Positions 1-40,724 of a DNA stretch of 64,000 bases are shown one piece after another. A program made the position numbers and the translations under genes. Each line of letters starts with the position of its first letter. Positions within the stretch are counted from its first letter, which is position 1. This DNA comes from Mustelus asterias (taxonomy: Eukaryota). The notes beneath the pieces were generated by a model. That model did no database searches. It saw only the letters and a program-made list of their open reading frames with translations, and was not told where the DNA came from. The DNA lies in contig NC_135808.1 of the NCBI RefSeq assembly GCF_964213995.1, positions 43,338,001-43,402,000 on the forward strand, in the 5' to 3' direction.

Positions 1-3000
1 TCTCTCTCTCTCTGTGTCCCGCTCTCTCTCTCTCTGCCTGTGCACCGCTCTCTCTCTCGCTCTGTTTCCCCCGCTCTCTCTCTCTCTCTCTTGCCTGTGC
101 CCCGCTCTCTCTCTCTCTCTCTCTCTGTGTCCCGCTCTCTCTCTGTGTCCCGCTCTCTCTCTCTCTCTGTGTCCCGCTCTCTCTCTCTTTGTGTCCCGCT
201 CTCTCTCTCTCTGTGTCCCGCTCTCTCTCTCTCTGTGCCCCGCTCTCTCTCTCTCTCTGTGTCCCGCTCTCTCTCTCTCTGTGCCCCGCACTCTCTCTCT
301 CTGCCTGTGCCCCGCTCTCTCTCTGTGTCCCGCTCTCTCTCTCTGTGTCCCGCTCTCTCTCTCTCTGTGCCCCGCTCTCTCTCTCTCTGCCTGTGCCCCG
401 CTCTCTCTCTGTGTCCTGCTCTCTCTCTCTCTGTGTCCCGCTCTCTCTCTCTCTGTGTCCCGCTCTCTCTCTCTCTGTGTCCCGCTCTCTCTCTCTCTGT
501 GTCCCGCTCTCTCTCTCTCTGTGTCCCGCTCTCTCTCTCTCTGTGTCCCGCTCTCTCTCTCTGTGTCCCGCTCTCTCTCTCTCTGTGCCCCGCTCCCTCT
601 CTCTGTGCCCCGCTCTCTCTCTCTCTCTGTGCCCCGCTCTCTCTCTCTCTCTGTGCCCTGCTCTCTCTCTCTCTCTGTGCCCCGCTCTCTCTCTCTCTCT
701 GTGCCCCGCTCTCTCTCTCTCTCTGTGCCCCGCTCTCTCTCTCTCTCTGTGCCCCGCTCTCTCTCTCTCTCTCTGTGCCCCGCTCTCTCTCTCTCTGTGC
801 CTGTGCCCCGCTCTCTCTCTCTGTGCCCCGCTCTCTCTCTCTCTGTGTCCCGCTCTCTCACTCTCTGTGCCCTGCCTCTCTCTCTCTCTGTGCCCCGCTC
901 TCTCTCTCTCTCTGTGCCCTGCTCTCTCTCTCTCTCTGTGCCCCGCTCTCTCTCTCTCTCTGTGCCCTGCTCTCTCTCTCTCTCTCTGTGCCCCGCTCTC
1001 TCTCTCTCTCTGTGCCCCGCTCTCTCTCTCTCTCTGTGCCCCGCTCCCTCTCTCTCTCTCTGTGCCCCGCTCTCTCTCTCTCTCTGTGCCCCGCTCTCTC
1101 TCTCTCTCTCTGTGCCCCGCTCTCTCTCTCTGTGTCCCGCTCTCTCTCTCTCTGTGTCCCGCTCTCTCTCTCTCTGCCTGTGCCCCGCTCTCTCTCTCTC
1201 GCTCTGTGTCCCGCTCTCTCTCTCTCTGCCTGTGCCCCGCTCTCTCTCTCTCTCTCTCTCTGTGTCCCGCTCTCTCTCTCTCTCTGTGTCCCGCTCTCTC
1301 TCTCTCTCTGTGTCCCGCTCTCTCTCTCTCTCTGTGTCCCCGCTCTCTCTCTCTCTGTGTCCCGCTCTCTCTCTCTCTGTGTCCCGCTCTCTCTCTCTCT
1401 GTGCCCCGCTCTCTCTCTCTCTCTGTGTCCCGCTCTCTCTCTCTCTGTGCCCCGCACTCTCTCTCTCTGCCTGTGCCCCGCTCTCTCTCTGTGTCCCGCT
1501 CTCTCTCTCTGTGTCCCGCTCTCTCTCTCTCTGTGCCCCGCTCTCTCTCTCTCTGCCTGTGCCCCGCTCTCTCTCTGTGTCCCGCTCTCTCTCTCTCTGT
1601 GTCCCGCTCTCTCTCTCTCTGTGTCCCGCTCTCTCTCTCTCTGTGTCCCGCTCTCTCTCTCTCTGTGTCCCGCTCTCTCTCTCTCTCTGTGTCCCGCTCT
1701 CTCTCTCTCTGTGCCCCGCTCTCTCTCTCTGTGCCCCGCTCTCTCTCTCTCTCTGTGCCCCGCTCTCTCTCTCTCTCTGTGCCCCGCTCTCTCTCTCTCT
1801 CTGTGCCCCGCTCTCTCTCTCTGTGCCCCGCTCTCTCTCTCTCTCTGTGCCCCGCTCTCTCTCTCTCTGTGCCTGTGCCCCGCTCTCTCTCTCTCTCTGT
1901 GCCCCGCTCTCTCTCTCTCTGTGTCCCGCTCTCTCACTCTCTGTGCCCTGCTCCCTCTCTCTCTCTGTGCCCCGCTCTCTCTCTCTCTGTGCCCTGCTCT
2001 CTCTCTCTCTCTGTGCCCCACTCTCTCTCTCTCTCTGTGCCCCGCTCTCTCTCTCTCTCTGTGCCCCGCTCTCTCTCTCTCTCTGTGCCCCGCTCTCTCT
2101 CTCTCTCTGTGCCCTGCTCTCTCTCTCTCTCTGTGCCCCGCTCTCTCTCTCTCTGTACCCCGCTCTCTCTCTCTCTGTGTCCCGCTCTCTCACTCTCTGT
2201 GCCCCGCTCTCTCTCTCTCTCTCTGTGCCCCGCTCTCTCTCTCTCTCTGTGCCCCGCTCTCTCTCTCTCTGTGCCCCGCTCTCTCTCTCTCTGTGCCCCG
2301 CTCTCTCTCTCTCTCTCTGTGCCCCGCTCTCTCTCTCTCTCTCTGTGCCCCGCTCTCTCTCTCTCTCTCTGTGCCCCGCTCTCTCTCTCTCTCTCTGTGC
2401 CCCGCTCCCTCTCTCTCTCTCTGTGCCCCGCTCTCTCTCTCTCTCTCTGTGCCCCGCTCTCTCTCTCTCTGTGTCCCGCTCTCTCTCTCTCTGTGTCCCG
2501 CTCTCTCTCTCTGCCTGTCCCCCGCTCTCTCTCTCTCTCTCTCTGTGTCCCGCTCTCTCTCTCTCTGCCTGTGCCCCGCTCTCTCTCTCTCTCTGTGTCC
2601 CGCTCTCTCTCTCTCTCTGTGCCCCGCTCTCTCTCTCTCTGCCTGCGCCCCGCTCTCTCTCTGTGTCCCGCTCTCTCTCTCTGTGTCCCGCTCTCTCTCT
2701 CTCTGTGTCCCGCTCTCTCTCTCTCTGTGTCCCGCTCTCTCTCTCTCTGTGCCCCGCTCTCTCTCTCTCTGCCTGTGCCCCGCTCTCTCTCTCTCTCTGC
2801 CTGTGCCCCGCTCTCTCTGCCTGTGCCCCGCTCTCTCTGCCTGTGCCTCGCACTCTCTCTCTCTCTGTGTCCCGCTCTCTCTCTCTCTGTGCCCCGCTCT
2901 CTCTCTCTCTGTGCCCCGCTCTCTCTCTCTCTCTGCCTGTGCCCCGCTCTCTCTCTCTCTTTGCTGTGCCCCGCTCTCTCTCTCTCTCTCTGCCTGTGCC

Positions 3001-6000
3001 CCGCTCTCTCTCTCTCTGCCTGTTGCCCCGCTCTCTCTCTCTGCCTGTGCCCCGCTCTTTCTGCCTGTGCCCCGCTCTCTCTCTCTCTGCCTGTGCCCCG
3101 CTCTCTCTCTCTCTCTGCCTGTGCCCCGCTCTCTCTGCCTGTGCCCCACTCTCTCTGCCTGTGCCCCGCTGTCTCTGCCTGTGCCCCACTCTCTCTGCCT
3201 GTGCCCCGCTCTCTCTGCCTGTGTCCCGCTCTCTCTCTCTCTGCCCCGCTCTCTCTCTCTGTGTCCCGCTCTCTCTCTCTCTGTGCCCCGCTCTCTCTCT
3301 CTGTGCCCCGCTCTCTCTCTCTCTCTGTGCCCCGCTCTCTGTCTCTCTCTGTGCCCCGCTCTCTCTCTCTCTCTGTGCCCCGCTCTCTCTCTCTCTCTCT
3401 GTGCCCCGCTCTCTCTCTCTCTCTGTGCCTGTGCCCCGCTCTCTCTCTCTCTCTGTGCCCGCTCTCTCTCTCTCTCTGTGTCCCGCTCTCTCACTCTCTG
3501 TGCCCCGCTCTCTCTCTCTCTCTGTGCCCTGCTCTCTCTCTCTCTGTGCCCCGCTCTCTCTCTCTCTGTGCCCTGCTCTCTCTCTCTCTCTGTGCCCCGC
3601 TCTCTCTCTCTGTGCCCTGCTCTCTCTCTCTCTCTCTGTGCCCCGCTCTCTCTCTCTGTGCCCTGCTCTCTCTCTCTCTCTGTGCCCCGCTCTCTCTCTC
3701 TCTGTGTCCCGCTCTCTCACTCTCTGTGTCCCGCTCTCTCTCTCTCTCTGTGCCCCGCTCTCTCTCTCTCTCTGTGCCCCGCTCTCTCTCTCTCTCTGTG
3801 CCCTGCTCTCTCTCTCTCTCTCTGTGTCCCGCTCTCTCTCTCTCTCTGTGCCCCGCTCTCTCTCTCTCTCTGTGCCCCGCTCTCTCTCTCTCTGTGCCCC
3901 GCTCTCTCACTCTCTGTGCCCCGCTCTCTCTCTCTCTGTGCCCCGCTCTCTCTCTCTCTCTGTGCCCCGCTCTCTCTCTCTCTGTGCCCCGCTCTCTCTC
4001 TCTCTGTGCCCCGCTCTCTCTCTCTCTGTGCCCCGCTCTCTCTCTCTCTGTGCCCCGCTCTCTCTCTCTCTGTGCCCCGCTCTCTCTCTCTCTCTCTGTG
4101 CCCCGCTCTCTCTCTCTCTCTCTGTGCCCCGCTCTCTCTCTCTCTCTCTGTGCCCCGCTCTCTCTCTCTCTCTCTGTGCCCCGCTCTCTCTCTCTCTCTG
4201 TGCCCCGCTCTCTCTCTCTCTCTCTGTGCCCTGCTCTCTCTCTCTGTGTCCCGCTCTCTCTCTCTCTGTGTCCCGCTCTCTCTCTCTCTGCCTGTGCACC
4301 GCTCTCTCTCTCTCTCGCTCTGTTTCCCGCTCTCTCTCTCTCTGCCTGTGCCCCGCCTCTCTCTCTCTCTCTCTGTGTCCCGCTCTCTCTCTCTCTGTGT
4401 CCCGCTCTCTCTCTCTCTCTGTGTCCCGCTCTCTCTCTCTTTGTGTCCCGCTCTCTCTCTCTCTGTGTCCCGCTCTCTCTCTCTCTGTGCCCCGCTCTCT
4501 CTCTCTCTGTGTCCCGCTCTCTCTCTCTCTGTGCCCCGCACTCTCTCTCTCTGCCTGTGCCCCGCTCTCTCTCTGTGTCCCGCTCTCTCTCTCTGTGTCC
4601 CGCTCTCTCTCTCTCTGTGCCCCGCTCTCTCTCTCTCTGCCTGTGCCCCCGCTCTCTCTCTGTGTCCCGCTCTCTCTCTCTCTGTGTCCCGCTCTCTCTC
4701 TCTCTCTGTGTCCCGCTCTCTCTCTCTCTGTGTCCCGCTCTCTCTCTCTCTGTGTCCCGCTCTCTCTCTCTCTGTGTCCCGCTCTCTCTCTCTCTGTGTC
4801 CCGCTCTCTCTCTCTCTCTGTGTCCCGCTCTCTCTCTCTCTCTGTGCCCCGCTCTCTCTCTCTCTCTGTGCCCCGCTCTCTCTCTCTCTCTGTGCCCCGC
4901 TCTCTCTCTCTCTGTGCCTGTGCCCCGCTCTCTCTCTCTCTGCCCCGCTCTCTCTCTCTCTGTGTCCCGCTCTCTCACTCTCTGTGCCCCGCTCTCTCTC
5001 TCTCTGCCTGTGCCCCGCTCTCACTCTCTCTGCCTGTGCCCCGCTCTCTCTCACTCTGCCTGTGCCCCGCTCTCTCTCTCTGCCTGTGCCCCGCTCTCTC
5101 TCTCTCTCTCTGCCTGTGCCCCGCTCTCTCTCTCTCTGCCTGTGCCCCACTCTCTGTCTCTCTCTCTGTGCCCCGCTCTCACTCTCTCTGCCTGTGCCCC
5201 GCTCTCACTCTCTCTGCCTGTACCCCGCTCTCTCTCACTCTCTCTGCCTGTGCCCCGCTCTCTCTCTCTGCCTGTGCCCCGCTCTCTCTCTCTCTCTCTG
5301 TGCCCTGCTCTCTCTCTCTCTCTGTGCCCCGCTCTCACTCTCTCTGCCTGTGCCCCGCTCTCTCTCACTCTCTCTGCCTGTGCCCCGCTCTCTCTCTCTG
5401 CCTGTGCCCCGCTCTCTCTCTCTCTCTGCCTGTGCCCCGCTCTCTCTCTCTCTGCCTGTGCCCCACTCTCTGTCTCTCTCTGCCTGTGCCTCGCTCTCTC
5501 TCTCTCTCTCTGCCTGTGCCCCGCTCTCTCTCTCTGCCTGTGCCCCGCTCTCTCTCTCTCTCTCTGCCTGTGCCCCGCTCTCTCTCTCTGCCTGTGCCCC
5601 GCTCTCTCTCTCTCTCTCTGCCTGTGCCCCGCTCTCTCTCTCTGCCTGTGCCCCGCTCTCTCTCTCTCTCTCTGCCTGTGCCCCGCTCTCTCTCTCTCTC
5701 TCTGCCTGTGCCCCGCTCTCTCTGCCTGTGCCCCGCTCTCTCTCTCTCTCTCTGCATGTGCCCCGCTCTCTCTCTCTGTGTCCCGCTCTCTCTCTCTCTC
5801 TGCCTGTGCCCCGCTCTCTCTGCCTATGCCCCGCTCTCTCTCTCTCTCTGTGCCCCGCTCTCTCTCTGTGCCCCGCTCTCTCTCTCTCTCTGTGCCCCGC
5901 TCTCTCTCTCTGTGTCCCGCTCTCTCTCTCTCTCTCTGTGCCCCGCTCTCTCTCTCTCTGTGCCCCGCTCTCTCTCTCTGTGCCCCGCTCTCTCTCTCTC

Positions 6001-9000
6001 TCTGTGCCCCGCACTCTCTCTCTGCCTGTGCCCCGCTCTCTCTCTCTCTGCCTGTGCCCCGCTCTCTCTCTCTCTGCCTGTGCCCCGCTCTCTCTCTCTC
6101 TGCCTGTGCCACGCTCTCTCTCTCTCTCTGCCTGTGCCCCGCTCTCTCTGCCTGTGCCCCGCTCTCTCTGCCTGTGCCTCGCACTCTCTCTCTCTCTCTG
6201 TGTCCCGCTCTCTCTCTCTCTGTGCCCCGCTCTCTCTCTCTCTCTGTGCCCCGCTCTCTCTCTCGCTGTGCCCCGCTCTCTCTCTCTCTGTGCCCCGCTC
6301 TCTCTCTCTCTCTGCCTGTGCCCCGCTCTCTCTCTCTCTTTGCCTGTGCCCCGCTCTCTCTCTCTCTCTGCCTGTGCCCCGCTCTCTCTCTCTCTGCCTG
6401 TGCCCCGCTCTCTCTCTCTGCCTGTGCCCCGCTCTTTCTGCCTGTGCCCCGCTCTCTCTCTCTCTGCCTGTGCCCCGCTCTCTCTCTCTCTCTGCCTGTG
6501 CCCCGCTCTCTCTGCCTGTGCCCCACTCTCTCTGCCTGTGCCCCGCTGTCTCTGCCTGTGCCCCACTCTCTCTGCCTGTGCCCCGCTCTCTCTGCCTGTG
6601 TCCCGCTCTCTCTCTCTCTGCCCCGCTCTCTCTCTCTGTGTCCCGCTCTCTCTCTCTCTGTGCCCCGCTCTCTCTCTCTGTGCCCCGCTCTCTCTCTCTC
6701 TCTGTGCCCCGCTCTCTGTCTCTCTCTGTGCCCCGCTCTCTCTCTCTCTGTGCCCCGCTCTCTCTCTCTCTCTCTGTGCCCCGCTCTCTCTCTCTCTCTC
6801 TGTGCCTGTGCCCCGCTCTCTCTCTCTCTCTGTGCCCCGCTCTCTCTCTCTCTCTGTGCCCCGCTCTCTCTCTCTCTCTGTGTCCCGCTCTCTCACTCTC
6901 TGTGCCCCGCTCTTTCTCTCTCTCTGTGCCCTGCTCTCTCTCTCTCTGTGAACCGCTCTCTCTCTCTGTGCCCTGCTCTCTCTCTCTCTCTGTGCCCCGC
7001 TCTCTCTCTCTGTGCCCTGCTCTCTCTCTCTCTCTCTGTGCCCCGCTCTCTCTCTCTCTCTGTGCCCTGCTCTCTCTCTCTCTCTCTGTGCCCCGCTCTC
7101 TCCTCTCTGTGTCCCGCTCTCTCACTCTCTGTGTCCCGCTCTCTCTCTCTCTCTGTGCCCCGCTCTCTCTCTCTCTCTGTGCCCGCTCTCTCTCTCTCTC
7201 TGTGCCCTGCTCTCTCTCTCTCTCTGTGCCCCGCTCTCTCTCTCTCTCTCTGTGCCCCGCTCTCTCTCTCTCTGTGTCCCGCTCTCTCACTCTCTGTGCC
7301 CCGCTCTCTCTCTCTCTCTGTGCCCCGCTCTCTCTCTCTCTCTGTGCCCCGCTCTCTCTCTCTCTGTGCCCCGCTCTCTCTCTCTCTGTGCCCCGCTCTC
7401 TCTCTCTCTCTCTGTGCCCCGCTCTCTCTCTCTCTCTCTGTGCCCCGCTCTCTCTCTCTCTCTGTGCCCCGCTCTCTCTCTCTCTCTGTGCCCCGCTCTC
7501 TCTCTCTCTGTGCCCCGCTCTCTCTCTCTCTCTGTGCCCCGCTCTCTCTCTCTCTCTGTGCCCCGCTCTCTCTCTCTCTCTGTGCCCTGCTCTCTCTCTC
7601 TCTCTCTGTGTCCCGCTCTCTCTCTCTCTCTGTGCCCCGCTCTCTCTCTCTCTCTGTGCCCCGCTCTCTCTCTCTCTCTGTGCCCCGCTCTCTCACTCTC
7701 TGTGCCCCGCTCTCTCTCTCTCTCTGTGCCCCGCTCTCTCTCTCTCTCTGTGCCCCGCTCTCTCTCTCTCTGTGCCCCGCTCTCTCTCTCTCTGTGCCCC
7801 GCTCTCTCTCTCTCTGTGCCCCGCTCTCTCTCTCTCTGTGCCCCGCTCTCTCTCTCTCTCTCTGTGCCCCGCTCTCTCTCTCTCTCTCTGTGCCCCGCTC
7901 TCTCTCTCTCTCTCTGTGCCCCGCTCTCTCTCTCTCTCTCTGTGCCCCGCTCTCTCTCTCTCTCTGTGCCCCGCTCTCTCTCTCTCTCTCTGTGCCCCGC
8001 TCTCTCTCTCTGTGTCCCGCTCTCTCTCTCTCTGTGTCCCGCTCTCTCTCTCTCTGCCTGTGCACCGCTCTCTCTCTCGCTCTGTTTCCCGCTCTCTCTC
8101 TCTCTCTCTGCCTGTGCCCCGCTCTCTCTCTCTCTCTCTCTCTGTGTCCCGCTCTCTCTCTCTCTCTGTGTCCCGCTCTCTCTCTCTTTGTGTCCCGCTC
8201 TCTCTCTCTCTGTGTCCCGCTCTCTCTCTCTCTGTGCCCCGCTCTCTCTCTCTCTCTGTGTCCCGCTCTCTCTCTCTCTGTGCCCCGCACTCTCTCTCTC
8301 TGCCTGTGCCCCGCTCTCTCTCTGTGTCCCGCTCTCTCTCTCTGTGTCCCGCTCTCTCTCTCTCTGTGCCCCGCTCTCTCTCTCTCTGCCTGTGCCCCGC
8401 TCTCTCTCTGTGTCCTGCTCTCTCTCTCTCTGTGTCCCGCTCTCTCTCTCTCTGTGTCCCGCTCTCTCTCTCTCTGTGTCCCGCTCTCTCTCTCTCTGTG
8501 TCCCGCTCTCTCTCTCTCTGTGTCCCGCTCTCTCTCTCTCTGTGTCCCGCTCTCTCTCTCTGTGTCCCGCTCTCTCTCTCTCTGTGCCCCGCTCCCTCTC
8601 TCTGTGCCCCGCTCTCTCTCTCTCTCTGTGCCCCGCTCTCTCTCTCTCTCTGTGCCCTGCTCTCTCTCTCTCTCTGTGCCCCGCTCTCTCTCTCTCTCTG
8701 TGCCCCGCTCTCTCTCTCTCTCTGTGCCCCGCTCTCTCTCTCTCTCTGTGCCCCGCTCTCTCTCTCTCTCTCTGTGCCCCGCTCTCTCTCTCTCTGTGCC
8801 TGTGCCCCGCTCTCTCTCTCTGTGCCCCGCTCTCTCTCTCTCTGTGTCCCGCTCTCTCACTCTCTGTGCCCTGCTCTCTCTCTCTCTCTGTGCCCCGCTC
8901 TCTCTCTCTCTCTGTGCCCTGCTCTCTCTCTCTCTCTGTGCCCCGCTCTCTCTCTCTCTCTGTGCCCTGCTCTCTCTCTCTCTCTCTGTGCCCCGCTCTC

Positions 9001-11380
9001 TCTCTCTCTCTGTGCCCCGCTCTCTCTCTCTCTCTGTGCCCCGCTCCCTCTCTCTCTCTCTGTGCCCCGCTCTCTCTCTCTCTCTGTGCCCCGCTCTCTC
9101 TCTCTCTCTCTGTGCCCCGCTCTCTCTCTCTGTGTCCCGCTCTCTCTCTCTCTGTGTCCCGCTCTCTCTCTCTCTGCCTGTGCCCCGCTCTCTCTCTCTC
9201 TCGCTCTGTGTCCCGCTCTCTCTCTCTCTGCCTGTGCCCCGCTCTCTCTCTCTCTCTCTCTCTGTGTCCCGCTCTCTCTCTCTCTCTCTCTGTGTCCCGC
9301 TCTCTCTCTCTCTCTGTGTCCCGCTCTCTCTCTCTCTCTGTGTCCCGCTCTCTCTCTCTCTGTGTCCCGCTCTCTCTCTCTCTGTGTCCCGCTCTCTCTC
9401 TCTCTGTGCCCCGCTCTCTCTCTCTCTCTGTGTCCCGCTCTCTCTCTCTCTGTGCCCCGCACTCTCTCTCTCTGCCTGTGCCCCGCTCTCTCTCTGTGTC
9501 CCGCTCTCTCTCTCTGTGTCCCGCTCTCTCTCTCTCTGTGCCCCGCTCTCTCTCTCTCTGCCTGTGCCCCGCTCTCTCTCTGTGTCCCGCTCTCTCTCTC
9601 TCTGTGTCCCGCTCTCTCTCTCTCTGTGTCCCGCTCTCTCTCTCTCTGTGTCCCGCTCTCTCTCTCTCTGTGTCCCGCTCTCTCTCTCTCTGTGTCCCGC
9701 TCTCTCTCTCTCTCTGTGTCCCGCTCTCTCTCTCTCTGTGCCCCGCTCTCTCTCTCTCTGTGCCCCGCTCTCTCTCTCTCTCTGTGCCCCGCTCTCTCTC
9801 TCTCTCTGTGCCCCGCTCTCTCTCTCTGTGCCCCGCTCTCTCTCTCTCTCTGTGCCCCGCTCTCTCTCTCTCTGTGCCTGTGCCCCGCTCTCTCTCTCTC
9901 TCTGTGCCCCGCTCTCTCTCTCTCTCTCTGTGCCCCGCTCTCTCCCTCTCTGTGTCCCGCTCTCTCACTCTCTGTGTCCCGCTCTCTCTCTCTCTCTGTG
10001 CCCCGCTCTCTCTCTCTCTCTGTGCCCCGCTCTCTCTCTCTCTCTGTGCCCTGCTCTCTCTCTCTCTCTGTGCCCCGCTCTCTCTCTCTCTCTCTGTGCC
10101 CCGCTCTCTCTCTCTCTGTGTCCCGCTCTCTCACTCTCTGTGCCCCGCTCTCTCTCTCTCTCTCTGTGCCCCGCTCTCTCTCTCTCTCTGTGCCCCGCTC
10201 TCTCTCTCTCTGTGCCCCGCTCTCTCTCTCTCTGTGCCCCGCTCTCTCTCTCTCTCTCTGTGCCCCGCTCTCTCTCTCTCTCTCTGTGCCCCGCTCTCTC
10301 TCTCTCTCCTTGCCCCGCTCTCTCTCTCTCTCTGTGCCCCGCTCTCTCTCTCTCTGTGCCCCGCTCTCTCTCTCTCTCTGTGCCCCGCTCTCTCTCTCTC
10401 TCTGTGCCCCGCTCTCTCTCTCTCTCTGTGCCCTGCTCTCTCTCTCTCTCTCTGTGTCCCGCTCTCTCTCTCTCTCTGTGCCCCGCTCTCTCTCTCTCTC
10501 TGTGCCCCGCTCTCTCTCTCTCTCTGTGCCCCGCTCTCTCACTCTCTGTGCCCCGCTCTCTCTCTCTCTCTGTGCCCCGCTCTCTCTCTCTCTCTGTGCC
10601 CCGCTCTCTCTCTCTCTGTGCCCCGCTCTCTCTCTCTCTGTGCCCCGCTCTCTCTCTCTCTGTGCCCCGCTCTCTCTCTCTCTGTGCCCCGCTCTCTCTC
10701 TCTCTGTGCCCCGCTCTCTCTCTCTCTCTCTGTGCCCCGCTCTCTCTCTCTCTCTCTGTGCCCGCCTCTCTCTCTCTCTCTGTGCCCCGCTCTCTCTCTC
10801 TCTCTCTGTGCCCCGCTCTCTCTCTCTCTCTGTGCCCCGCTCTCTCTCTCTCTCTCTGTGCCCCGCTCTCTCTCTCTGTGTCCCGCTCTCTCTCTCTCTG
10901 TGTCCCGCTCTCTCTCTCTCTGCCTGTGCACCGCTCTCTCTCTCGCTCTGTTTCCCGCTCTCTCTCTCTCTCTCTGCCTGTGCCCCGCTCTCTCTCTCTC
11001 TCTCTCTCTGTGTCCCGCTCTCTCTCTCTCCTCTGTGTCCCGCTCTCTCTCTCTCTCTGTGTCCCGCTCTCTCTCTCTCTGTGTCCCGCCTCTCTTTCCC
11101 GCTCTCTCTCTCTCTGTGTCCCGCTCTCTCTCTCTCTGTGCCCCGCTCTCTCTCTCTCTCTGTGTCCCGCTCTCTCTCTCTCTGTGCCCCGCACTCTCTC
11201 TCTCTGCCTGTGCCCCGCTCTCTCTCTGTGTCCCGCTCTCTCTCTCTGTGTCCCGCTCTCTCTCTCTCTGTGCCCCGCTCTCTCTCTCTCTGCCTGTGCC
11301 CCGCTCTCTCTCTGTGTCCCGCTCTCTCTCTCTCTGTGTCCCGCTCTCTCTCTCTCTGTGTCCCGCTCTCTCTCTCTGTG
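1..11380. repeat. CT-rich compound satellite, unit (CT)n-GTG[C/T]CCCG of about 20-30 bp with GCCT-insertion variants and kb-scale higher-order blocks
   Basis: Read directly. The + strand is almost devoid of A, so it has almost no stop codons. The rare marker TGCACC recurs at 41, 4295, 8061 and 10927. Confidence 0.97.
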
Positions 11381-21032: not shown

Positions 21033-22651
21033 TATTTGCTACCAAATAAACCTGTTGGACTTTAATCTGGTGTTATGAGACTTCTTTCTATGGCTAAGCC
21101 AGTTCTCCACCCATCTAGCTAGCTCACCTTTTATCCCGTGATATTTAACCTTTTGCACCAGCCTGCCATGAGGGACCTTGTCAAACGCTTTACTAAAATC
21201 CATATAGACGAAATCCACGGCCCTTCCCTCGTCAATCGTTTTTGTCACCTCCTCAAAAAACTCAACCAAATTTGTGGTGTCTTTGGACTATCAGAGCTTT
21301 TGATAAAGTCCCTCATAAGAGGTTAGTGGGGAAAATTAAAGCACCTGGGATATGGGTAATGTATTGGCATGGGTCAAGAATTGCTTGACAGACAGGAGAC
21401 AGAAAGTGGGAATAAATGGATCTTTTTCTGAGCAGCAGGCAGCGACTAGTGAGGCACCGCAGCGATCAGATCTTGGGCCCCAGCTGTTCACAATGTATAT
21501 AAATCACCTGGATGAAGAGACGAAAGGTAACATTAACAAGTTTGCTGACGACACAAAACGGGATGGAATTGTGAATTGTGACGAGGATGCAAGGAGGCTT
21601 CAAGGTGATTTAGACAAATTGAGTGAGTGGGGCAAACACATGGCTGATGCAGAATAATGTGGATAAATATGAAGTTATACACTTTGGTATGAGAAACAGA
21701 AAGAGTACAACTTACATAGTGATATATTGGGAAATATGGATGTACAAAATGGATCTGGGCGTCCTTGTACACTAGTCAATGAGAGTGGAGAGGCAGGAAA
21801 TTCAGAAGGCAGATAGTATGTTGACCTTCATTGCAAAAGGCTGTGAGTTCAGAAATAGGGATGTCTTAATGCAGTTATCCCGGGCCTTGGTGAGACCACA
21901 CCTGTCGTATTGTGAGCAGTTTTGGTCTCCCTGCCAAAGAAATGATATACTTGCCACAGAGGCAGTGCAGCGGAAGTTTCTTCGGCTGATATCGGGGTTG
22001 GTGGGACTGTCAACAAAGAACAAAGAAGAAAGAAAATTACAGCACAGGAACAGGCCCTTCGGCCCTCCAAGTCCGCACCGACCATGCTGCCTGACTGAAC
22101 TAAAACCCCCACCCTTCTGGGGACCATTTCCCTCCATTCCCATCCTAATCTAATCTAATCTACTAGTATTTGTCAAGATGCCCCTTAAAAGTCACTCTTG
22201 TATTTGCTTCCACTGTTGGAAAGGGTGCAGAGGAGATTTACCAGGATGTTGTCTGGTATGGTGGGAAAATCGTATGAGGAAAGGCTGAGGGGCTTGAGGT
22301 TGTTTTCGTTAGAGAGGAGAAGGTTAAGAGGTGACTTAATAGAGGCATACAAGATGATCAGAGGATTAGATAGGGTGGATAGTGAGAGCCTTTTTCCTCG
22401 GATGGTGTTGGCTAGCACGAGGGGACATAGCTTTAAATTGAGGGGTGAGAGATATAGGACAGATGTTAGAGGTAGGTTCTTTACTCAGAGAGTAGTAAGG
22501 GCGTGGAATGCCCTGCCTGCAGCAGTGGTGGACTCGTCAACGTTGAGAGCGTTCAAGTGGTTATTGGATAGAACATAGAACATAGAACAGTACAGCACAG
22601 AACAGGCCCTTCGACCCACGATGTTGTGCCGAGCTTTATCTGAAACCAAGA

Positions 22652-25555
22652 TCAAGCTATCCCACTCCCTATCATCCTGGTGTGCTCCATGTGCCTATCC
22701 AATAACCGCTTAAATGTTTCTAAAGTGTCTGACTCCACTATTACTGCAGGCAGTCCATTCCACACCCCAACCACTCTCTGCGTAAAGAACCTACCTCTGA
22801 TATCCGTCCTGTATCTCCCACCACGAACTCTATAGTTATGCCCCCTTGTAATAGCTCCATCCACCCGAGGAAATAGTCTTTGAACGTTCACTCTATCTAT
22901 CCCCTTCATCATTTTATACACCTCTATTAAGTCTCCCCTCAGCCTCCTCCGCTCCAGAGAGAACAGCCCTAGCTCCCTCAACCTTTCCTCATATGACCTA
23001 CCCTCCAAACCAGGCAGCATCCTGGTAAATCTCCTCTGCACTCTTTCCAGCGCTTCCACATCCTTCTTATAGTGAGGTGACCAGAACTGCACACAATATT
23101 CCAAATGTGGTCTCACCAAGGTCCTGTACAGTTGCAGCATAACCCCACGGCTCTTAAACTCCAACCCCCTGTTAATAAAATCTAACACACTATAGGCCTT
23201 CTTCACAGCTCTATCCACTTGGGTGGCAACCTTTAGAGATCTGTGAATATGGACCCCAAGATCTCTCTGTTCCTCCACAGTCTTCAGAACCCTACCTTTG
23301 ACCCTGTAATCCACATTTAAATTTGTCCTACCAAAATGAATCACCTCACATTTATCAGGGTTAAACTCCATTTGCCATTTTTCAGCCCAGCTTTGCATCC
23401 TATCTATGTCTCTTTGCAGCCTACAACAGCCCTCCACCTCATCCACTACTCCACCAATCTTGGTGTCATCAGCAAATTTACTGATCCACCCTTCAGCCCC
23501 CTCCTCTAAGTCATTAATAAAAATCACAAAGAGCAGAGGACCAAGCACTGATCCCTGCGGCACACCGCTAGCAACCTGCCTCCAATCCGAAAATTTTCCA
23601 TCGACCACCACCCTCTGTCTTCGGTCAGACAGCCAGTTACCTATCCAATCGGCCAACTTTCCCTCTATCCCACACCTCCTCACTTTCATCATAAGCCGAC
23701 CATGGGGGACCTTATCAAACGCCTTACTAAAATCCATGTATATGACATCAACTGCCCTACCTTCATCAACACACTTAGTTACCTCCTCAAAAAATTCTAT
23801 CAAATTTGTGAGGCACGACTTGCCCTTCACGAATCCGTGCTGACTATCTCGGATTAATCCGCATCTTTCTAAATGGTCGTAAATCCCATCCCTAAGGACC
23901 CTTTCCATCAATTTACCAACCACCGAAGTAAGACTAACCGGTCTATAATTACCAGGGTCATTCCTATTCCCTTTCTTAAACAGAGGAACAACATTCGCCA
24001 TTCTCCAGTCCTCTGGCACCATCCCCGTGGACAGCGAGGACCCAAAGATCAACGCCAAAGGCTCTGCAATCTCATCCCTTGCCTCCCACAGAATCCTAGG
24101 ATACATTTCATCAGGCCCAGGGGACTTATCGACCTTCAGTTTATTCAAAACTGCCAAGACATCCTCCCTCCGAACATCTATTTCCTCCAGCCTATTAGCC
24201 TGTAACACCTTCCCTTCCTCAAAAACATGGCCCCTCTCCTTGGTGAACACTGAAGAAAAGTATTCATTCATCACCTCGCCTATCTCTACTGACTCCATAC
24301 ACAAGTTCCCACTACTGTCCTTGACCGGCCCTAACCTCACCCTGGTCATTCTTTTATTCCTCACATAAGAGTAAAAAGCCTTGGGGTTTTCCTTGATCCG
24401 ACCCGCCAAGGACTTCTCATGTCCCCTCCTAGCTCTCCTAAGCCCCTTTTTCAGCTCATTCCTTGCTAACTTGTAACCCTCAATCAAGCCATCTGAACCT
24501 TGTTTCCTCATCCCTACATAAGCTTCCCTCTTCCTTTTCACAAGACATTCCACCTCTTTTGTGAACCATGGTTCCCTCACTCGGCCATTTCCTCCCTGCC
24601 TGACAGGAACATACCTATCAAGGACATCCAGTATTTGTTCCTTGAAAAAGTTCCACTTTTCATTAGTTCCTTTCTCTGACAGTTTCTGTTCCCAACTTAT
24701 GCCCCCTAATTCTTGCCTAATCGCATCGTAATTACCCCTCCCCCAATTGTAAACCTTGCCCTGCCGTACGGCCCTATCCCTCTCCATTGCAATAACAAAA
24801 GACACCGAATTGTGGTCACTATCTCCAAATTGCTCTCCCACAACCAAATCTAACACTTGGCCCGGTTCATTTCCCAGTACCAAATCCAATGTGGCCTCAC
24901 CTCTAGTCGGCCCATCCACATATTGTGTCAGGAAACCCTCCCGCACACACTGCACAAAAACTGCCCCATCCAAACTATTTGATCTACAAAGGTTCCAATC
25001 AATATTTGGAAAGTTAAAGTCCCCCATGACAACTACCCTGTGACCCCCACACATATCCATAATCTGCTTAGCAATTTCTTCCTCCACATCTCTATTACTA
25101 TTTGGGGGCCTATAGTAAACTCCTAGCAACGTGACCGCTCCTTTCCTATTTCTAACTTCAGCCCATATTACCTCAGTGTGCAGATCTCCCACGAAGTGCC
25201 TTTCCGCAGCCGTTAAACTATCCTTGATTAACAATGCCACTCCGCCACCTCTTTTACCAGCTTCCCTACACTTAGTGAAACATCTATACCCCGGAACGTC
25301 CACCAACCATTCCTGTCCTTGTTCTACCCACGTCTCCGTAATGGCCACAACATCGTAGTCCCAAGTACCAATCCACGCCCCAAGTTCATCTACCTTGTTC
25401 CGGATGCTCCTTGCATTGAAGTAGACACACTTCAACCCACCTTCCTGTCTACCAGTACCCACCCTTGACCCTGATACCTTCCCCAATACCTCACCACCCT
25501 CACTGACTTCTGGACTACAACTCCCTTTCCCACTCCCCTGACAAATTAGTTTAAA
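22652..25555 (-). CDS. CR1 ORF2: APE endonuclease plus reverse transcriptase, intact, no N-terminal AUG
   Basis: CVYFNARS, ITETW, YRPP, GDFN, LDLVL, SDHN, QHGF, PQGSVLGP, FADD. The track start at 25666 is TTG. Confidence 0.95.
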   Translation of the reverse strand, partial: FKLICQGSGKGSCSPEVSEGGEVLGKVSGSRVGTGRQEGGLKCVYFNARSIRNKVDELGAWIGTWDYDVVAITETWVEQGQEWLVDVPGYRCFTKCREAGKRGGGVALLIKDSLTAAERHFVGDLHTEVIWAEVRNRKGAVTLLGVYYRPPNSNRDVEEEIAKQIMDMCGGHRVVVMGDFNFPNIDWNLCRSNSLDGAVFVQCVREGFLTQYVDGPTRGEATLDLVLGNEPGQVLDLVVGEQFGDSDHNSVSFVIAMERDRAVRQGKVYNWGRGNYDAIRQELGGISWEQKLSEKGTNEKWNFFKEQILDVLDRYVPVRQGGNGRVREPWFTKEVECLVKRKREAYVGMRKQGSDGLIEGYKLARNELKKGLRRARRGHEKSLAGRIKENPKAFYSYVRNKRMTRVRLGPVKDSSGNLCMESVEIGEVMNEYFSSVFTKERGHVFEEGKVLQANRLEEIDVRREDVLAVLNKLKVDKSPGPDEMYPRILWEARDEIAEPLALIFGSSLSTGMVPEDWRMANVVPLFKKGNRNDPGNYRPVSLTSVVGKLMERVLRDGIYDHLERCGLIRDSQHGFVKGKSCLTNLIEFFEEVTKCVDEGRAVDVIYMDFSKAFDKVPHGRLMMKVRRCGIEGKLADWIGNWLSDRRQRVVVDGKFSDWRQVASGVPQGSVLGPLLFVIFINDLEEGAEGWISKFADDTKIGGVVDEVEGCCRLQRDIDRMQSWAEKWQMEFNPDKCEVIHFGRTNLNVDYRVKGRVLKTVEEQRDLGVHIHRSLKVATQVDRAVKKAYSVLDFINRGLEFKSRGVMLQLYRTLVRPHLEYCVQFWSPHYKKDVEALERVQRRFTRMLPGLEGRSYEERLRELGLFSLERRRLRGDLIEVYKMMKGIDRVNVQRLFPRVDGAITRGHNYRVRGGRYRTDIRGRFFTQRVVGVWNGLPAVIVESDTLETFKRLLDRHMEHTRMIGSGIA

Positions 25556-26472
25556 CCCCCCTGAAGAGCCGTAACAAATTTCCCTCCGAGGATATTGGTG
25601 CCCCTCTGGTTCAGGTGCACCCCGTCCTGTTTGTACAGGTCCCACCTTCCCCAGAACGTGTTCCAATTATCCACGTATCTGAAACCCTCCCTCCTACACC
25701 ATCCCTGCAACCACATATTTAACTGCACTCTCTCCCTGTTCCTCAACTCGCTATCACGTGGTACCGGCAACGTACCAGAGATGACCACATGTTTCGTCTT
25801 GGCTCTCAGCTTCCAGCCCAGCTCCAGAAATTCCTGCTTTAAATCCCCGTCCCTTCTCTTACCTATGTCATTGGTACCAATGTGCACCACGACTTGTGAC
25901 TGTTTCCCCTCCCCCTTCAGAATCTGGAAAACACGGTCTGAGACATCACGGACCTTGGCATCCGGTAGGCAACATACCATCCGTGAGTCTCTTTTGCTGC
26001 CACAGAACCTCCTATCTATCCCTCTAACTAACGAGTCCCCAATAACTATCGCCCTCCCGCTCTCCCCCTTTCCCTCCCGAGCCACAGAGACGGACACAGT
26101 GCTGGAGATCCTCTCACTGCGGCTCCCCACTGGTATGTCATCCCCCTCAACCGTATCCAAAGCGGAATACTAGTTGCTAAGGGGAACGACCACCGGGGAT
26201 CCCTGCACGGACTGCTTCTTCCCAGCCCCTCTCACCGTCACCCATCTGTTTTCAATCCTCGGAGTAACTGTATTCCTAAAGCTTGTGTCTATGGCCATCT
26301 CTGCGTCCCTGATGATCCTAAGTTCATCCAACTCCAGCTCCAGTTCCCTAACACGGTTTTGGAGGAGCTGCAGATGGGTGCACTTCCCACAGGTGTAATC
26401 AGTAGGGACACTGTCGTCGTACCTCACCTCAAACATAGTGCAAGAGGAACATTGCACTGCCTGCACACCCAT
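25546..26472 (-). CDS. CR1 ORF1: zinc finger, leucine zipper and SGNH esterase; one in-frame TAG at 26170-26172
   Basis: CxxC...CxxC, LQNRVRELELELDEL, IVIGDSLV, VHIGTND, DGVH. The two track ORFs are in the same frame. Confidence 0.92.
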
Positions 26473-26665
26473 CCCCTCTAGATACCTTGCCAGTACAAGG
26501 TAGAAAGTGCAAAAATGAATTCAACTCACCCCTGCTCGCCCTTTCAGCCTAAGCCCTGTGAGCCAAAGTCTTATAGCTCACACTCTGCTTCCCACACACT
26601 ACACTGCCCGCTCCCGACGCTGCCCGCTGTATACTGCAGCCTACCTTTTATACTTCACGCGCTTA

Positions 26666-27086
26666 AAAAACCCTTCCCAGACTCCTTTGCTGCCCACTTC
26701 TAGTTTTCACTTTAAACTTGAAAAACTGCTGTTAAAGTAAAGGCCAAAAAAATACACACACTAGCTGACTAATTAAATAAATAAACAATTCAATTAATCT
26801 CTCACCAGCACTGCTGCTTGCAATCACCCCTCTCAGCTTGCTCCAGTGGATCAATGAGGGGGAACCTCCCAGGTAACTGACTTTTAAAGTTAAAATAAAA
26901 ACCCTTCCCAGACTCCTTTGCTGCCCACTTCTAGTTTTCACTTTAAACTTGAAAAACTGCTGTTAAAGTAAAGGCCAAAAAAATACACACACTAGCTGAC
27001 TAATTAAATAAATAAACAATTCAATTAATCTCTCACCAGCACTGCTGCTTGCAATCACCCCTCTCAGCTTGCTCCAGTGGATCAAT
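26666..27086 (-). repeat. Tandem 5' UTR repeat of the CR1, period 231 bp
   Basis: 26666-26855 appears identical to 26897-27086. Confidence 0.95.
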
Positions 27087-30070
27087 CATGATAAACATAT
27101 GGATGATATTGGAATAGCGTAGATTAGAGGGGCTTTAGATTGGTACCACTGGTCGGCGCAACATCGAGGGCCGAAGGGCCTGTACTGCGCTGTAATGTTC
27201 TATGTTCTACTACCTCACCCGGCAGTGAGTTCCAGGCACCCACCACCCTCTGTGTAAAAAATCTGCTTCGTACATCTCCTTTAAACCTTGCCCCTCGCAC
27301 CTTAAACCTATGCCCCCTAGTAATTGACTCTTCCATCCTGGGAAAAAGCTTCTGACTATCCACTCTGTCCATGCTCCTCATAATCTTGTAGACTTTTATC
27401 AGGTCTCCCCTCAATCTCCACCACTCCAATGAGAACAAACCAAGTTTCTCCAACCTCTCTTCATAGCTAATGCCCTGCATACCAGGCAACATCCTGGTAA
27501 ATCTTTTCTGTACCCTCTCCAAAGCCTCCACATCCTTCTGGTAGTGTGGCGACCAGAATTGAACACTATATTCCAAGTGCGGCCTAACTAAGGTTCTATA
27601 AAGCTGCAACATGACTTGCCAATTTTTAAACTCAATGCCCCGGCCGATGAAGGCAAGCATGCCGTATGCTTTCTTGACTATCTCCCCCACCTGCATTGCC
27701 ACTTTCAGTGATCTGTGTACCTGTACACCCAGATCCCTCTGCCTATCAATACTCTTTAAGGTTCTGCCATTTACTGTATATTTCCTATCTGCATTAGACC
27801 TTCCAAAATGCATTACCTCACATTTGTCCGGATTAAACTGCATCTGCCATCTCTCCGCCCAAGTCTTCAACTGATCTATATCCTGCTGTATCCTCTGATG
27901 GTCCTCATCTCTATCCACAAATCCACCAATCTTTATGTTGTCCGCAAACTTACTAATCAATCCAGTTACATTTTCCTCCAAATCATTTATATATATTACA
28001 AACAGCAAAGGTCCCAGCACTAATCCCTGAGGAACACCACTTGTCACAGCCCTCCATTCAGAAACACACCCTTCCACTGCCACCCTCTGTCTTCTTTGAC
28101 CAAGCTAGTTCTGTATCCACCTTTGCCAGTTCACCTCTGATCGCATGCGACTTCACCTTCTGCACCAGTCTACCATGCGGGACCTTATTAAAGGCCTGAC
28201 TGAAGTCCATGTAGACAACTGCCCTACCCTCATTAACCATCTTCCTTGAAAAACTCGATCAAGTTAGTGAGACATGACCTCCCCTTCACAAAACGATGTT
28301 GTCTCTCGCTAATATGGCCACTTATTTCCAAGTGAGAGTAAATCCTGTCTCAAAGAATCCTCTCAAATAATTTCCTTATCACTGACGTAAGGCTCACCAG
28401 CCTGTAATTACCTGGATTATTCTTGCCACCCTTCTTAAACAGAGGAACAACATTGGCTATTCTCCAATCCTCTGGACCTCCCCTGTAGCCAGTGAGGATA
28501 CAAAAATTTCTCTCAAGGCCCCAGCAATTTCCTCCCTTGCTTCTCTCAGTATTCTGGGGTATACCATATCAGGCCCAGGGGATTTGTCTACCTTAATATT
28601 TCTCAAAAACCCCAATACCTCCTCCTTTTTGATCTCAACATGACTCAAACTATCTACACACCCTTTCCCAGACTCATCATCCATCAAGTCCTTCTCTTTG
28701 GTGAATACTGATGCAAAGTACTCATTTAATACCTTGCCTACTTCCTCTGGCTCCACGCATAGATTCCCTCCCCTGTGCTTGAGAGGGCCAACCCTCTCCC
28801 TGGCTACCCTCCTGCTCTTTATAAATGTATAAAAAGCTTTGGGATTTTCCTTCATCCTGCTGGCCAATGATTTTTCATGACCTCTTTTAGTCCTCCTTAC
28901 TCCTTGCTTAAGTTTCTTTCTACTTTCCTTGTGTTCCACACTTGCTTCGTGTGTTCCCAGCCTCCTAGCTTTGACAAATGCTTCCTTTTTCTCTTTGACT
29001 AGGCTCACAATATCTCTCGTTATCCAAGGTTCCCAAAACTTGCCATACTTATCCTTCATTCTTACAGGAATGTGCCGGTCCTGAGTCCCTATCAACTTAC
29101 ACTTGAAAGCCTCCCACATGCCAGATGTTGATTTGCCCTCAAATATCTGCCCCCAATCTTCAGTTCTTGCCTAATAGTGTTGTAATTAGCCTTCCCCCAA
29201 TTTAGCACCTTAACTTGAGGACTACACTTATCTTTAATCATCAGTACCTTCAAGCTTACTGAATTTTGGTCACTGTTCCCGAACTGCTCCCCTACTGAAA
29301 CGTCGACCACCTGGTCGGGCTCATTTCCCAATACCAGGTCCAGTATGGCCCCTTCTCGAGTTGGACTATCTACATACTGTTTCAGGAAGCCCTCCTGGAT
29401 GCTCCTTACAAACTTTGCCCCATTTACCCCCCCTAGCACTAAGTGAGTCCTGGTCAATATCGGGGAAGTTAAAATCTCCCACCACAACAACCCTGTTACT
29501 TTTACACCTTGCCAAAATCTGCCTACATATCTGTTCTTCTATCTCCTGCTGCCAGTTGGGCGGCCTATAGTAAACCCTCAACATTGTGACGGCACGCTTC
29601 CTATTCCTGAGCTCTACCCATATTGCCTCGCTGTCCTGTGAGGACAGATTAGTTCAACTGGGCCTGTATTGGCCAGAGTTTACAAAGATGAGAGGAGAGC
29701 TTATTGAAACAGATAAAATTCTAACAGGACTGGATAGACCAGATGTAGGGAGGATATTGGGGAATTTAGAACCAGGGGACACAGTCTCAGGGTACAGGGT
29801 AGACCATTTAGGACTGAGAGGAGCAGAAATTTCTTCACTCAGTGGGTGGTGAACCTGTGGAATTCTCTATCACTGTGGATATCAAGTCACTGAATATATT
29901 CAAGAAATAGATTATCTTTTTAGATTTAAACACATTAATGTCATGGCATCAAGGGATATGGGGAATGAGTGGGAATATAACATTGAGATAAAGGCTCAAC
30001 CATGATCACATTGAATGGCAGAGCAGAATTGAAGGGCTGAATGGCCTACTCCTGCTACTAGATTCTATGT

Positions 30071-37659: not shown

Positions 37660-37755
37660 AAAGGGTGCAATATTCCCAGAACTGCGGAATGTTGGATCAG
37701 CTTCGCAGCTGCCTTTTCTCACCTGATTTAATGGCAGTCTGTGCGATTTCAGAAT

Positions 37756-40724
37756 GCTGGGGATCAAAATATTAGGTCTACAAGTGTCGAGGCTGGGGAC
37801 GAGCTTGGGGCTGGGACAAGGCTGGCAAAGAAGAAGAGCACTCTGGGGGAGGATGACCTCACTGGGCCTGGAGGTCTGGAGTGCTTATACTTCAATGCAA
37901 GGAGCGGAGCAGGTAAGACAGATGAACTTAGGGCCTTAATGCTTACGAGGAATTTGGATGTGGTTGCGGTGACAGAGACTTGGTTGAAAGAGGGACAGGA
38001 CTGGCAGCTAAATATTCCAAGTGTTTTAGGCGAGACAGAGGAGGGGCCAAAAGAGGTGGGGGAGTAGCAGTATTAGTTGGAGAGCATATTACAGCGGTGC
38101 AGAGGGAGGACAATTCAGAGGGGTCGTGTAACGAGTCACTCTGGGTGGAGCTTAGAAACAGGAAGTGCGCAGTCACTATGTTGGGGGTATACTACAGGCC
38201 CCCCAACAACCCAAGGGAAGTGGAAGAACGGATATGTCAGGAGATACTGGATAGGTGCAGGAAAAATAGGGTTGTTGTAGTGGGAGACTTCAATTTCCCT
38301 GGGAATTGCTGAGAGCTGGGACTCTGAATGGGGAGGAATTTGTAAAATGCGTACAGGAGGGTTCTTTGGAACAATATGTAGATAGCCCGACTAGAGAGGG
38401 GGCTATACTGGACCTAGTACTGAGGAATGAGCCCGGTCATGTCTTCAAAGTTTCGGTAGGGGAACATGTGGCAAATAGTGACCACAATTCTGTTAGCTTT
38501 AGGATAGTGATGGAAAAGGATGAGTGGTGTCCCAAGGGTAAGGTGTTGGATTTGGGGAAGGCTAACCTTAGTGGGATTAGGCAGAAATTGGCAGCTCTTG
38601 ATTGGGAGAGGCTGTTTGAGGGTAAATCCACATCTGGCATGTGGGAGTCTTTTAAGGAACAGTTGCTCGGGCTACAGGACAGGCATGTGCCTGTAAAAAA
38701 GGATAGGAAGGGTAGGATTTGAGAACCGTGGATAACCAGGGAAATTGAGGGACTGGTCAAAAAGAAAAGAGAGACGTATGTTAGGTCCAGGCAGCTAAAA
38801 ATGGAGGGAGCTCTGGAGGAGTACAAAGAAAGTAGGAAAGAACTCAAACGGGGAATTAGAAGGGCAAAAAGGGGTCAAGAAATGTTCTTGGCAGACAGGA
38901 TTAAGGAGAATCCCAAGGCATTTTATTCATATGTTAGGAACAAAATGGTTGTCAGGGAAAAAATCGGACCTCTCAGGGACAAAAGTGGGGAATTATGCTG
39001 AGAGCCCAAAGAAGTAGGGGAGATCCTAAATGAATACTTTGCGTCGGTATTCACAAAGGAGAGGGATGTGTTGACTGGGAGTGCCTCGGAGGGGAGTGTT
39101 GAACCATTGGAGAAAATCTCCATTACAAGGGAGGACGTGTTAGGTTTGTTAGAGAATTTAAAGACTGACAAATCCCCAGGGCCTGATGGAATCTATCTAA
39201 GGCTGCTCAGGGAGACGAGAGGTGAAATCGCTGGGCCTCTGACGCAAATCTTTGTCTCGTCACTGGACACAGGTGAGGTCCCAGAGGATTGGAGGATAGC
39301 TAATGTGGTCCCATTATTTAAGAAGGGTAGGAAGGATAACCCGGGTAATTATAGGCCGGTGAGCTTGACGTCCGTGGTGGGGAAGTTGTTGGAGAAGATT
39401 CTTAGAGATCGGATGTATGCGCATTTAGAAAGGAATAAACTCATTAACGATAGTCAGCATGGTTTTGTGAGAGGGGGGTCATGCCTCACTAACCTGGTGG
39501 AGTTTTTTGAAGAAGTGACCAAAATGGTTGACGAGGGAAGGGCAGTGGATGTCGTCTATATGGACTTTAGTAAAGCGTTTGACAAAGTCCCTCATGGTAG
39601 GCTGGTGCAAAACGTTGGATCTCATGGGATAAAGGGGGAGGTGGCTAGATGGGTGGAGAACTGGCTTGGGCACAGAAGACAAAGGATGGTAGTGGAGGGG
39701 TCTTTTTCCGGCAGGAGGCCTGTGACTAGTGGTGTTCCGCAGGGCTCTGTATTGGGACCTCTGCTGTTTGTGATTTATATAAACGATCTGGAAGAAGGTG
39801 TAACTGGGGTGATCAGTAAGTTTGCGGACGACACAAAATTGGCAGGACTTGCAGATAGTGAGGAGCATTGTCAGAAGCTACAGAAAGATATAGATAGGCT
39901 GGAAATTTGGGCAAAGAAATGGCAGATGGAGTTCAATCCTGATAAATGCGAAGTGATGCATTTTGGTGGAAATAATGTAGGGAGGAGCTATACGATAAAT
40001 GGCAGAACCATAAAGGGTGTAGATACACAGAAGGACCTGGGTGTGCAAGTCCACAGATCCTTGAAGGTGACGTCACAGGTGGAGAAGGTGGTGAAGAAGG
40101 CATATGGCATGCTTGCCTTTATAGGACGGGGCATAGAGTATAAAAGTTGGGGTCTGATGTTGCAGATGTATAGAACATTGGTTCGGCCGCATTTGGAATA
40201 CTGCGTCCAGTTCTGGTCGCCACACTACCAGAAGGACGTGGAGGCTTTGGAGAGAGTACAGAGGAGGTTTACCAGGATGTTGCCTGGTATGGAGGGGCTT
40301 AGTTACGAGGAGAGATTGGGTAAACTGGGGTTGTTCTCCCTGGAAAGACAGAGGATGAGGGGAGACTTAATAGAGGTGTATAAAATTATGAAAGGCATAG
40401 ATAGGGTGAACGGTGGGAAGCTTTTCCCCAGGTCGGTGGTGACGTGCATGAGGGGTCATAGGTTCAAGGTGAAGTGGGGGAGGTTTAACACAGATATCAG
40501 AAGGACATATTTTACACAGAGGGTGGTGGGGGCCTGGAATGCGCTGCCAGGCAAGGTGGTGGAGGCGGACACACTGGGAACATTTAAGACTTATCTAGAT
40601 AGCCACATGAACGGAGTGGGAATGGAGGGATACAAAAGAATGGTCTACTTTAGACCAGGGAGCGGCATGGGCTTGGAGGGCCGAAGGGCCTGTTCCTGTG
40701 CTGTATTGTTCTTTGTTCTTGTTC
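37756..40724 (+). mobile_element. CR1 with near-complete ORF2 (APE disrupted, RT region open)
   Basis: ECLYFNARS, VTETW, YRPP, GDFN, SDHN; RT ORF 39068-40783; (TTCTTTG) tail. Confidence 0.96.

Follow-up and report, generated by a model that had tools for sequence, protein, structure and literature searches.

Esterase-type CR1 elements, which belong to the LINEs (long interspersed nuclear elements), are likely to make the protein of their second open reading frame (ORF2) by programmed −1 ribosomal frameshifting at the heptamer U_UUA_AAC, which would yield a fusion of the ORF1 and ORF2 products. The element considered here lies in a 64,000-nt stretch of the Mustelus asterias genome (GCF_964213995.1, NC_135808.1, positions 43,338,001-43,402,000), called the window below, in which positions are counted from the first nucleotide. 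At the ORF1/ORF2 junction the heptamer, the −1 phase and the spacing of a downstream G-rich motif are conserved, and there is no start codon common to the families. As far as sequence can tell, the junction is a real and deeply conserved signal of the recoding type. A gag-pol-like ORF1-ORF2 fusion by frameshifting had been proposed in a sequence-only reading of this DNA, and the invariance of silent sites and the constancy of phase support it, again at the level of sequence.

The junction in the window is as that reading had described it: the heptamer stands in ORF1 phase directly before the stop codon, ORF2 occupies the −1 frame and G runs follow on the 3′ side. The −1 frame reads FKLICQG at the heptamer and stays open to the end of ORF2 at 22652. 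Its first ATG is codon 166 (25060), in agreement with the earlier figure of about 165 codons and inside the endonuclease, whose match already starts at codon 45; a start at this methionine would therefore cost 121 endonuclease residues. TTTAAAC occurs once on the minus strand of the window, at the junction, and nine times on the plus strand. That its presence at the junction is not due to chance follows from counts of copies and of families.

Within the genome, an upstream ORF1 pattern alone (DGxHLN) gave 8,117 matches, with the heptamer visible by eye in 94 of the first 100, and the exact heptamer was found at the exact distance in 6,802 of the 8,117 copies. Variants in this ORF1-anchored set comprised 55 copies with a changed first base, 92 with AAT and 69 with an altered leucine codon, the last count taking silent and non-silent changes together and leaving the CTA form uncovered. 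The variants were scattered over families and, by eye, silent and non-silent changes were about equally common, which is the pattern for decay after insertion. The AAT variant, U_UUA_AAU, is still a slippery form; small sets of AAT copies on unplaced contigs, almost identical to one another, may have arisen by duplication. A second sample was anchored in ORF2, by an endonuclease-start pattern with 25,626 matches, from the first 100 of which 90 loci were taken and nine rows of the common type were skipped. The heptamer was intact in 72 of these loci and varied by one base in four; one locus had its junction deleted, and 13 ended before the junction, having no esterase and no heptamer upstream. 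Among the 90 loci there was no family without the slip site. The endonuclease was in the −1 frame relative to the heptamer in 60 of the 72 intact copies and off by 1-2 nt in the remaining 12.

For comparison among families, 160 junction copies (30 near-identical siblings included, and some loci fetched twice) were grouped into 23 clusters, 11 of which had a clean representative, 51-78% identical; some tests use 13 representatives, namely these 11 and two that were added. The codon before UUA specifies five amino acids (G, T, D, A and S) and has T as its third base in 11/11 representatives; Leu is TTA and Asn is AAC in all of them, and an invariant upstream leucine uses four codons. By parsimony, there are no changes at the three third positions of the heptamer, versus a mean of 3.1 at 23 upstream codons, on a tree that is rough because two of the representatives are truncated or chimeric. 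Silent variation of the heptamer among families, which the sequence-only reading had named as a sign against frameshifting, was thus not seen. The other such sign, a variable ORF2 phase, was also missing: linkers measure 123, 132, 135, 138, 144, 147, 153, 156, 183 and 222 nt in different families, all multiples of three, and the phase is kept. In all 13 representatives the linker is open in the −1 frame and has stops in both other frames, and seven of them have no in-frame methionine before the endonuclease. The family with the 222-nt linker (L114, L158, L180 and L156) resembles the 156-nt family at the start of the linker and the 183-nt family at its end, and it looks like a recombinant.

Downstream of the stop, at least eight G residues lie within +11 to +20 in 13/13 representatives. 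The exact form GGGG-NNN-GGG is present in 128 of the 160 junction copies, and elsewhere in the linkers it occurs once per 2,698 positions. Placed at the 10-nt spacer behind a short upstream anchor, it gave 12,621 genomic matches, as against none for the control; a further 11,903 matches come from another anchor and are no denominator for this figure. Each of the two glycine codons in the motif is GGG in 10/11 representatives, versus 33 of 103 glycine codons elsewhere. The suggestion that a G-quadruplex might be the stimulator was not supported: a three-tier pattern of four G3 tracts is found in 0/13 representatives with loops of 1-7 nt and in 3/13 with loops of up to 12 nt (intramolecular forms), and a two-tier pattern, present in 10/13, is absent from three, among them the family of the window copy. 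Hairpin and G-quadruplex were both rejected as stimulator, neither being conserved across the 13 representatives.

Other species were covered by a consensus library from the supplement of PMC13343379, using the first 400 letters of each of about 1,000 rows, so that most junctions fall outside it. A pattern search gave 23 matches, of which 18 were judged by eye to be at the end of ORF1 and five elsewhere. The 18 rows with heptamer and stop come from chimaera, catshark, dogfish, stingray, sawfish, bowfin, halosaur, coelacanth, bullfrog, bearded dragon, alligator and crocodile. Phase was followed by eye in four library consensuses and held in two of them, catshark and, as far as the first strand of the endonuclease, bowfin. 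Six variant decamers with TAG endings had eight matches in the library, none of them at an ORF1 end by eye.

At the protein level, an ORF1 profile search gave 147 new representatives, 80 of them with a recognisable end: 42 end in LN, 10 in GN, one in KN and 27 otherwise. Named ORF1 proteins ending in LN are from a snake, two lizards, two turtles and a swallow. Translation of U_UUA_AAC, G_GGA_AAC and A_AAA_AAC gives LN, GN and KN, respectively, and these heptamers are among the most shift-prone for mammalian ribosomes (PMC5009743). The GN and KN ends, known here from the proteins alone, are therefore suggestive of G_GGA_AAC and A_AAA_AAC sites. Four distant ORF1 proteins (P0101, P0120, P0140 and P0171) have Phe-Phe and one further residue at their end, which is what a slippery heptamer rich in U would encode. 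A metagenome scan returned four loci, three unrelated hydrolases and one retroelement, the latter 35% identical to a GN-type query. It has G_UUA_AAC, a stop, and a −1 frame open into the endonuclease, along with a methionine in the linker and a G run from +8; a G_UU(A) slip form is given for equine arteritis virus (PMC5009743). Scans for DNA of distant relatives found nothing relevant in viral sequences and none in prokaryote genomes or plasmids, a search for natural ORF1-ORF2 fusion proteins gave a single weak match to a host gene model, and the ORF2 homologues searched had no usable N-termini. Three shark-type CR1 proteins (P0005, P0032 and P0215) are filed under Pseudomonas, Proteus and Carnobacterium, and probably represent host contamination of bacterial assemblies.

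In the mechanism that we propose, most ribosomes would terminate at the ORF1 stop and release the ORF1 protein (ORF1p), while a minority of them, holding tRNA-Leu and tRNA-Asn on UUA AAC, would slip back by one base. The slipped ribosomes would read on as ...GLN-LICQG and make a predicted fusion of 1,273 residues, consisting of ORF1, linker, endonuclease and reverse transcriptase. The pause would come from the G motif as candidate stimulator, unstructured and located at the mRNA entry channel, probably with a bound protein; the adjacent stop may perhaps add to it. Such a route would set a low ratio of ORF2 to ORF1 product and tether the enzyme to ORF1p. The junction shares with canonical −1 sites a phased, silently conserved heptamer and an open, conserved −1 frame (60/72 copies), and with arterivirus-type sites a conserved unstructured motif behind a fixed spacer of about 10 nt, although here the motif is G-rich instead of C-rich and is not universal.

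Several observations weigh against frameshifting. The stem-loop or pseudoknot that canonical −1 sites have 5-9 nt downstream is missing, in that no conserved hairpin was found and the 80 nt past the stop fold no better than shuffled sequences in 13/13 representatives (z-scores −1.24 to +1.84, pseudoknots not being directly modelled). Nor does the G motif have a long-range partner within the element, the best pairing being −15.7 kcal/mol versus a shuffled mean of −16.4 kcal/mol. The silent invariance of the heptamer is shared by one of the 23 upstream codons, codon −9 (25573-25575, minus strand), with T in its third position in 11/11; moreover, the representatives are related, were selected because they have the heptamer, and include the two truncated or chimeric ones. 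An in-frame methionine is present in the linker of 6/13 representatives, at six different codons, and one subfamily (1/11 representatives) has an overlapping UAAUG like that of SART1. In the library, the G motif is exact in six of the 18 rows, shifted, partial or cut off in nine, and absent from three (bowfin, halosaur and one dogfish row). The phase broke in the alligator 1b and bearded dragon consensuses, whose rows look gappy, and phase in amniotes is thus unsupported. Finally, 27 of 80 distant ORF1 proteins end in something other than LN, GN or KN.

The alternative that fares best, though we consider it improbable, is termination-reinitiation, in which ribosomes would stop at the end of ORF1 and restart nearby on ORF2 at AUG or another codon, as in SART1 and L1. 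The ORF1 stop overlaps ORF2 codon 4 in the UAAUG geometry, and codon 4 is ATG in 1/11 representatives and ATT, GTG, GTT or GTA in 7/11, and L1 is tolerant of non-AUG codons; in the other 3/11, however, codon 4 is GAT or GAA. Reinitiation has no need of the heptamer's silent bases, yet those are invariant, and the overlapping UAAUG of the SART1 type is confined to 1/11 representatives. A conserved downstream structure as in SART1 is absent from the 13 representatives, and UGGGA occurs within 71 nt upstream in 4/13 only. Reinitiation is the mode of the LINEs that have been studied, as the sequence-only reading had stated of L1 and SART1 and as the literature agrees (PMC2881922, PMC3894237). In the UAAUG subfamily (L031, L046, L054, L076 and L096), in which the stop and ORF2 codon 4 lie directly 3′ of the heptamer, slippage and stop-start coupling could operate side by side.

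Less probable again is that constraint on protein yields the heptamer as a side effect, with the Leu-Asn end of ORF1 overlapping Phe-Lys-Leu of ORF2, and with ORF2 begun further upstream by another route. LN ends are indeed widely kept (42/80), and overlapping frames freeze silent sites. But the −1 frame is closed five codons upstream of the heptamer in 10/13 representatives and has no upstream methionine in 12/13, so that Phe-Lys could be decoded only through entry at or beside the slip site; the fixed spacer of the G motif and its GGG codon use also point to constraint on nucleotides.

The least likely explanation takes the motif for a signal in DNA or in splicing, either a TATA-like sequence plus GC/GT box or a splice acceptor, from which an ORF2-only mRNA with a non-AUG or spliced-in start would arise: TTTAAA and G-rich boxes do resemble promoter elements, and an AG stands at +10 in 8/13 representatives, but such a signal leaves unexplained why the motif is tied to the codon phase and stop of ORF1 and why linker indels keep the frame, and the splice acceptor was rejected because no AG position is common to 13/13. 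In contigs from seven public runs no joint falls at the junction; a contig of 1,757 nt spans it without a gap, and none of the differences listed for the contigs lies within 25526-25558. This is weak evidence, since the RNA status of the runs is a guess.

The element in the window (Table 1) is an esterase-type CR1 LINE, judging from its esterase ORF1, its APE endonuclease-reverse transcriptase ORF2, its microsatellite tail and a junction like that of library rows labelled CR1. ORF2 matches Pfam PF03372 (APE endonuclease) at codons 45-248 and PF00078 (reverse transcriptase) at codons 529-768. ORF1 homologues are found in sharks, rays, reptiles and a bird, the nearest named ones being from sharks and rays, and 5′-truncated copies are dispersed in the genome, as esterase-type CR1 LINEs have. 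The family is young, with all 40 scored matches (of 1,053 candidates) 100% identical across 301 bp. In the window copy ORF2 is intact and ORF1 is interrupted by a premature stop at 26172-26170 (minus strand), so that this copy cannot itself bring ribosomes to the slip site; ORF1 is uninterrupted in 15 of 30 siblings having the identical junction.

Table 1. Features of the CR1 element and its ORF1/ORF2 junction in the window
Feature	Position	Strand	Basis or remark
CR1 LINE, near full-length, of a young high-copy family	22568-27086 (ends approximate)	minus	sequence; sibling matches; 5′ subunit common to siblings
5′ untranslated region, tandem pair of a ~230-bp subunit	26660-27086 (limits approximate)	minus	sequence
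ORF1, 308 codons; N-terminus with Cys pairs, then SGNH/GDSL esterase	25546-26472	minus	PF13472, E=1.8e-12
Slippery heptamer U_UUA_AAC, in ORF1 X_XXY_YYZ phase	25549-25555	minus	reads GGG GGT TTA AAC TAA
ORF1 stop codon, directly 3′ of the heptamer	25546-25548	minus	UAA here; UAA, UAG or UGA depending on family
G motif GGGG-NNN-GGG, candidate stimulator	25529-25538 (+11 to +20, 10-nt spacer)	minus	conservation
Linker in −1 frame, 44 codons with neither stop nor Met	25424-25555	minus	frame reading
ORF2 frame, 967 codons counted from the heptamer	22652-25555	minus	reading frame; Pfam
3′ microsatellite tail, 7-nt unit ×3	22568-22588	minus	sequence

The copy number of the ~230-bp unit differs between siblings, and sibling L008 has an additional, shorter tandem unit further 3′. 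The element sits in the 3′ end of an older, oppositely oriented CR1 (22190-22567 and 27090-27200). A second CR1 of a different family (37745-38640, plus strand) is broken off just past the junction, so that its heptamer is missing. Positions 1-11000 show an extreme strand asymmetry over ~11 kb (GC skew about −0.56, AT skew about −0.98), and are probably an array of C/T-rich satellite or microsatellite repeats.

How LINEs initiate ORF2 has been called an open question (PMC3894237), and the group concerned here is abundant: CR1-group elements account for 22-34% of the genome in sharks and rays (PMC13343379) and for about 12% of it in chicken (PMC11835228). If frameshifting is the route, the CR1 enzyme is a fusion with ORF1p, ORF2 annotations that start at an internal methionine need correction, and eukaryotes have a frameshift stimulator that works without structure, at a defined spacing. 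More tentatively, we suggest that CR1 elements from chimaera to crocodile might make a Gag-Pol-like fusion by protein-stimulated −1 frameshifting, the G motif recruiting a host protein that binds G runs or ORF1p itself, and that distant relatives with GN or KN ends would have G_GGA_AAC or A_AAA_AAC, respectively, in place of the present heptamer. An implication would be that a non-viral element carries a G-rich counterpart to the signal of arteriviruses, and with it a switch by which the host or the element could set retrotransposition.

Among the closest known systems is the esterase-type vertebrate CR1 (ORF1 type IV, CR1 subgroup 7, PMC4120745; surveyed in PMC13343379), which has the same zinc-finger-like N-terminus and SGNH esterase, APE-reverse transcriptase ORF2, microsatellite tail and junction; the available parts of these two papers do not treat ORF2 translation. 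We found no report of a CR1 frameshift in the literature searched, which included the available parts of PMC13343379, PMC3905857, PMC11835228, PMC4120745, PMC4255032 and PMC7618472; the primary CR1 papers of 1997-2003 lie outside this coverage, and an earlier remark is therefore possible. There is a precedent among LINEs in Dictyostelium TRE5-A and TRE3-A, APE-type elements without long terminal repeats that both need a −1 frameshift for ORF2 (PMC5911963). They belong to another clade, however, and have another ORF1, and the available part of the source shows neither a slip site nor an analysis of conservation nor an assay. A frameshift is also used by HeT-A gag.

SART1 and human L1 resemble CR1 in having a bicistronic LINE RNA and a rare ORF2 output, but make a separate ORF2 protein by reinitiation (PMC2881922, PMC3894237), whereas UAAUG occurs in only one CR1 subfamily. 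Coronaviruses, including infectious bronchitis virus, and retroviral gag-pol share with CR1 the identical heptamer U_UUA_AAC and the layout of structural protein followed by polymerase (PMC5009743); their sites have a pseudoknot or stem-loop after 5-9 nt (PMC7618472), in contrast to the CR1 junction, which has no conserved one. For the downstream part of the signal, the parallel is the nsp2 −2/−1 site of an arterivirus, PRRSV, which like CR1 has no RNA structure and has a two-patch motif past a 10-nt spacer (PMC4937337). The viral motif is C-rich, is bound by PCBP/nsp1beta and follows another heptamer (PMC4937337), whereas that of CR1 is G-rich, and the likeness between the two signals is one of position.

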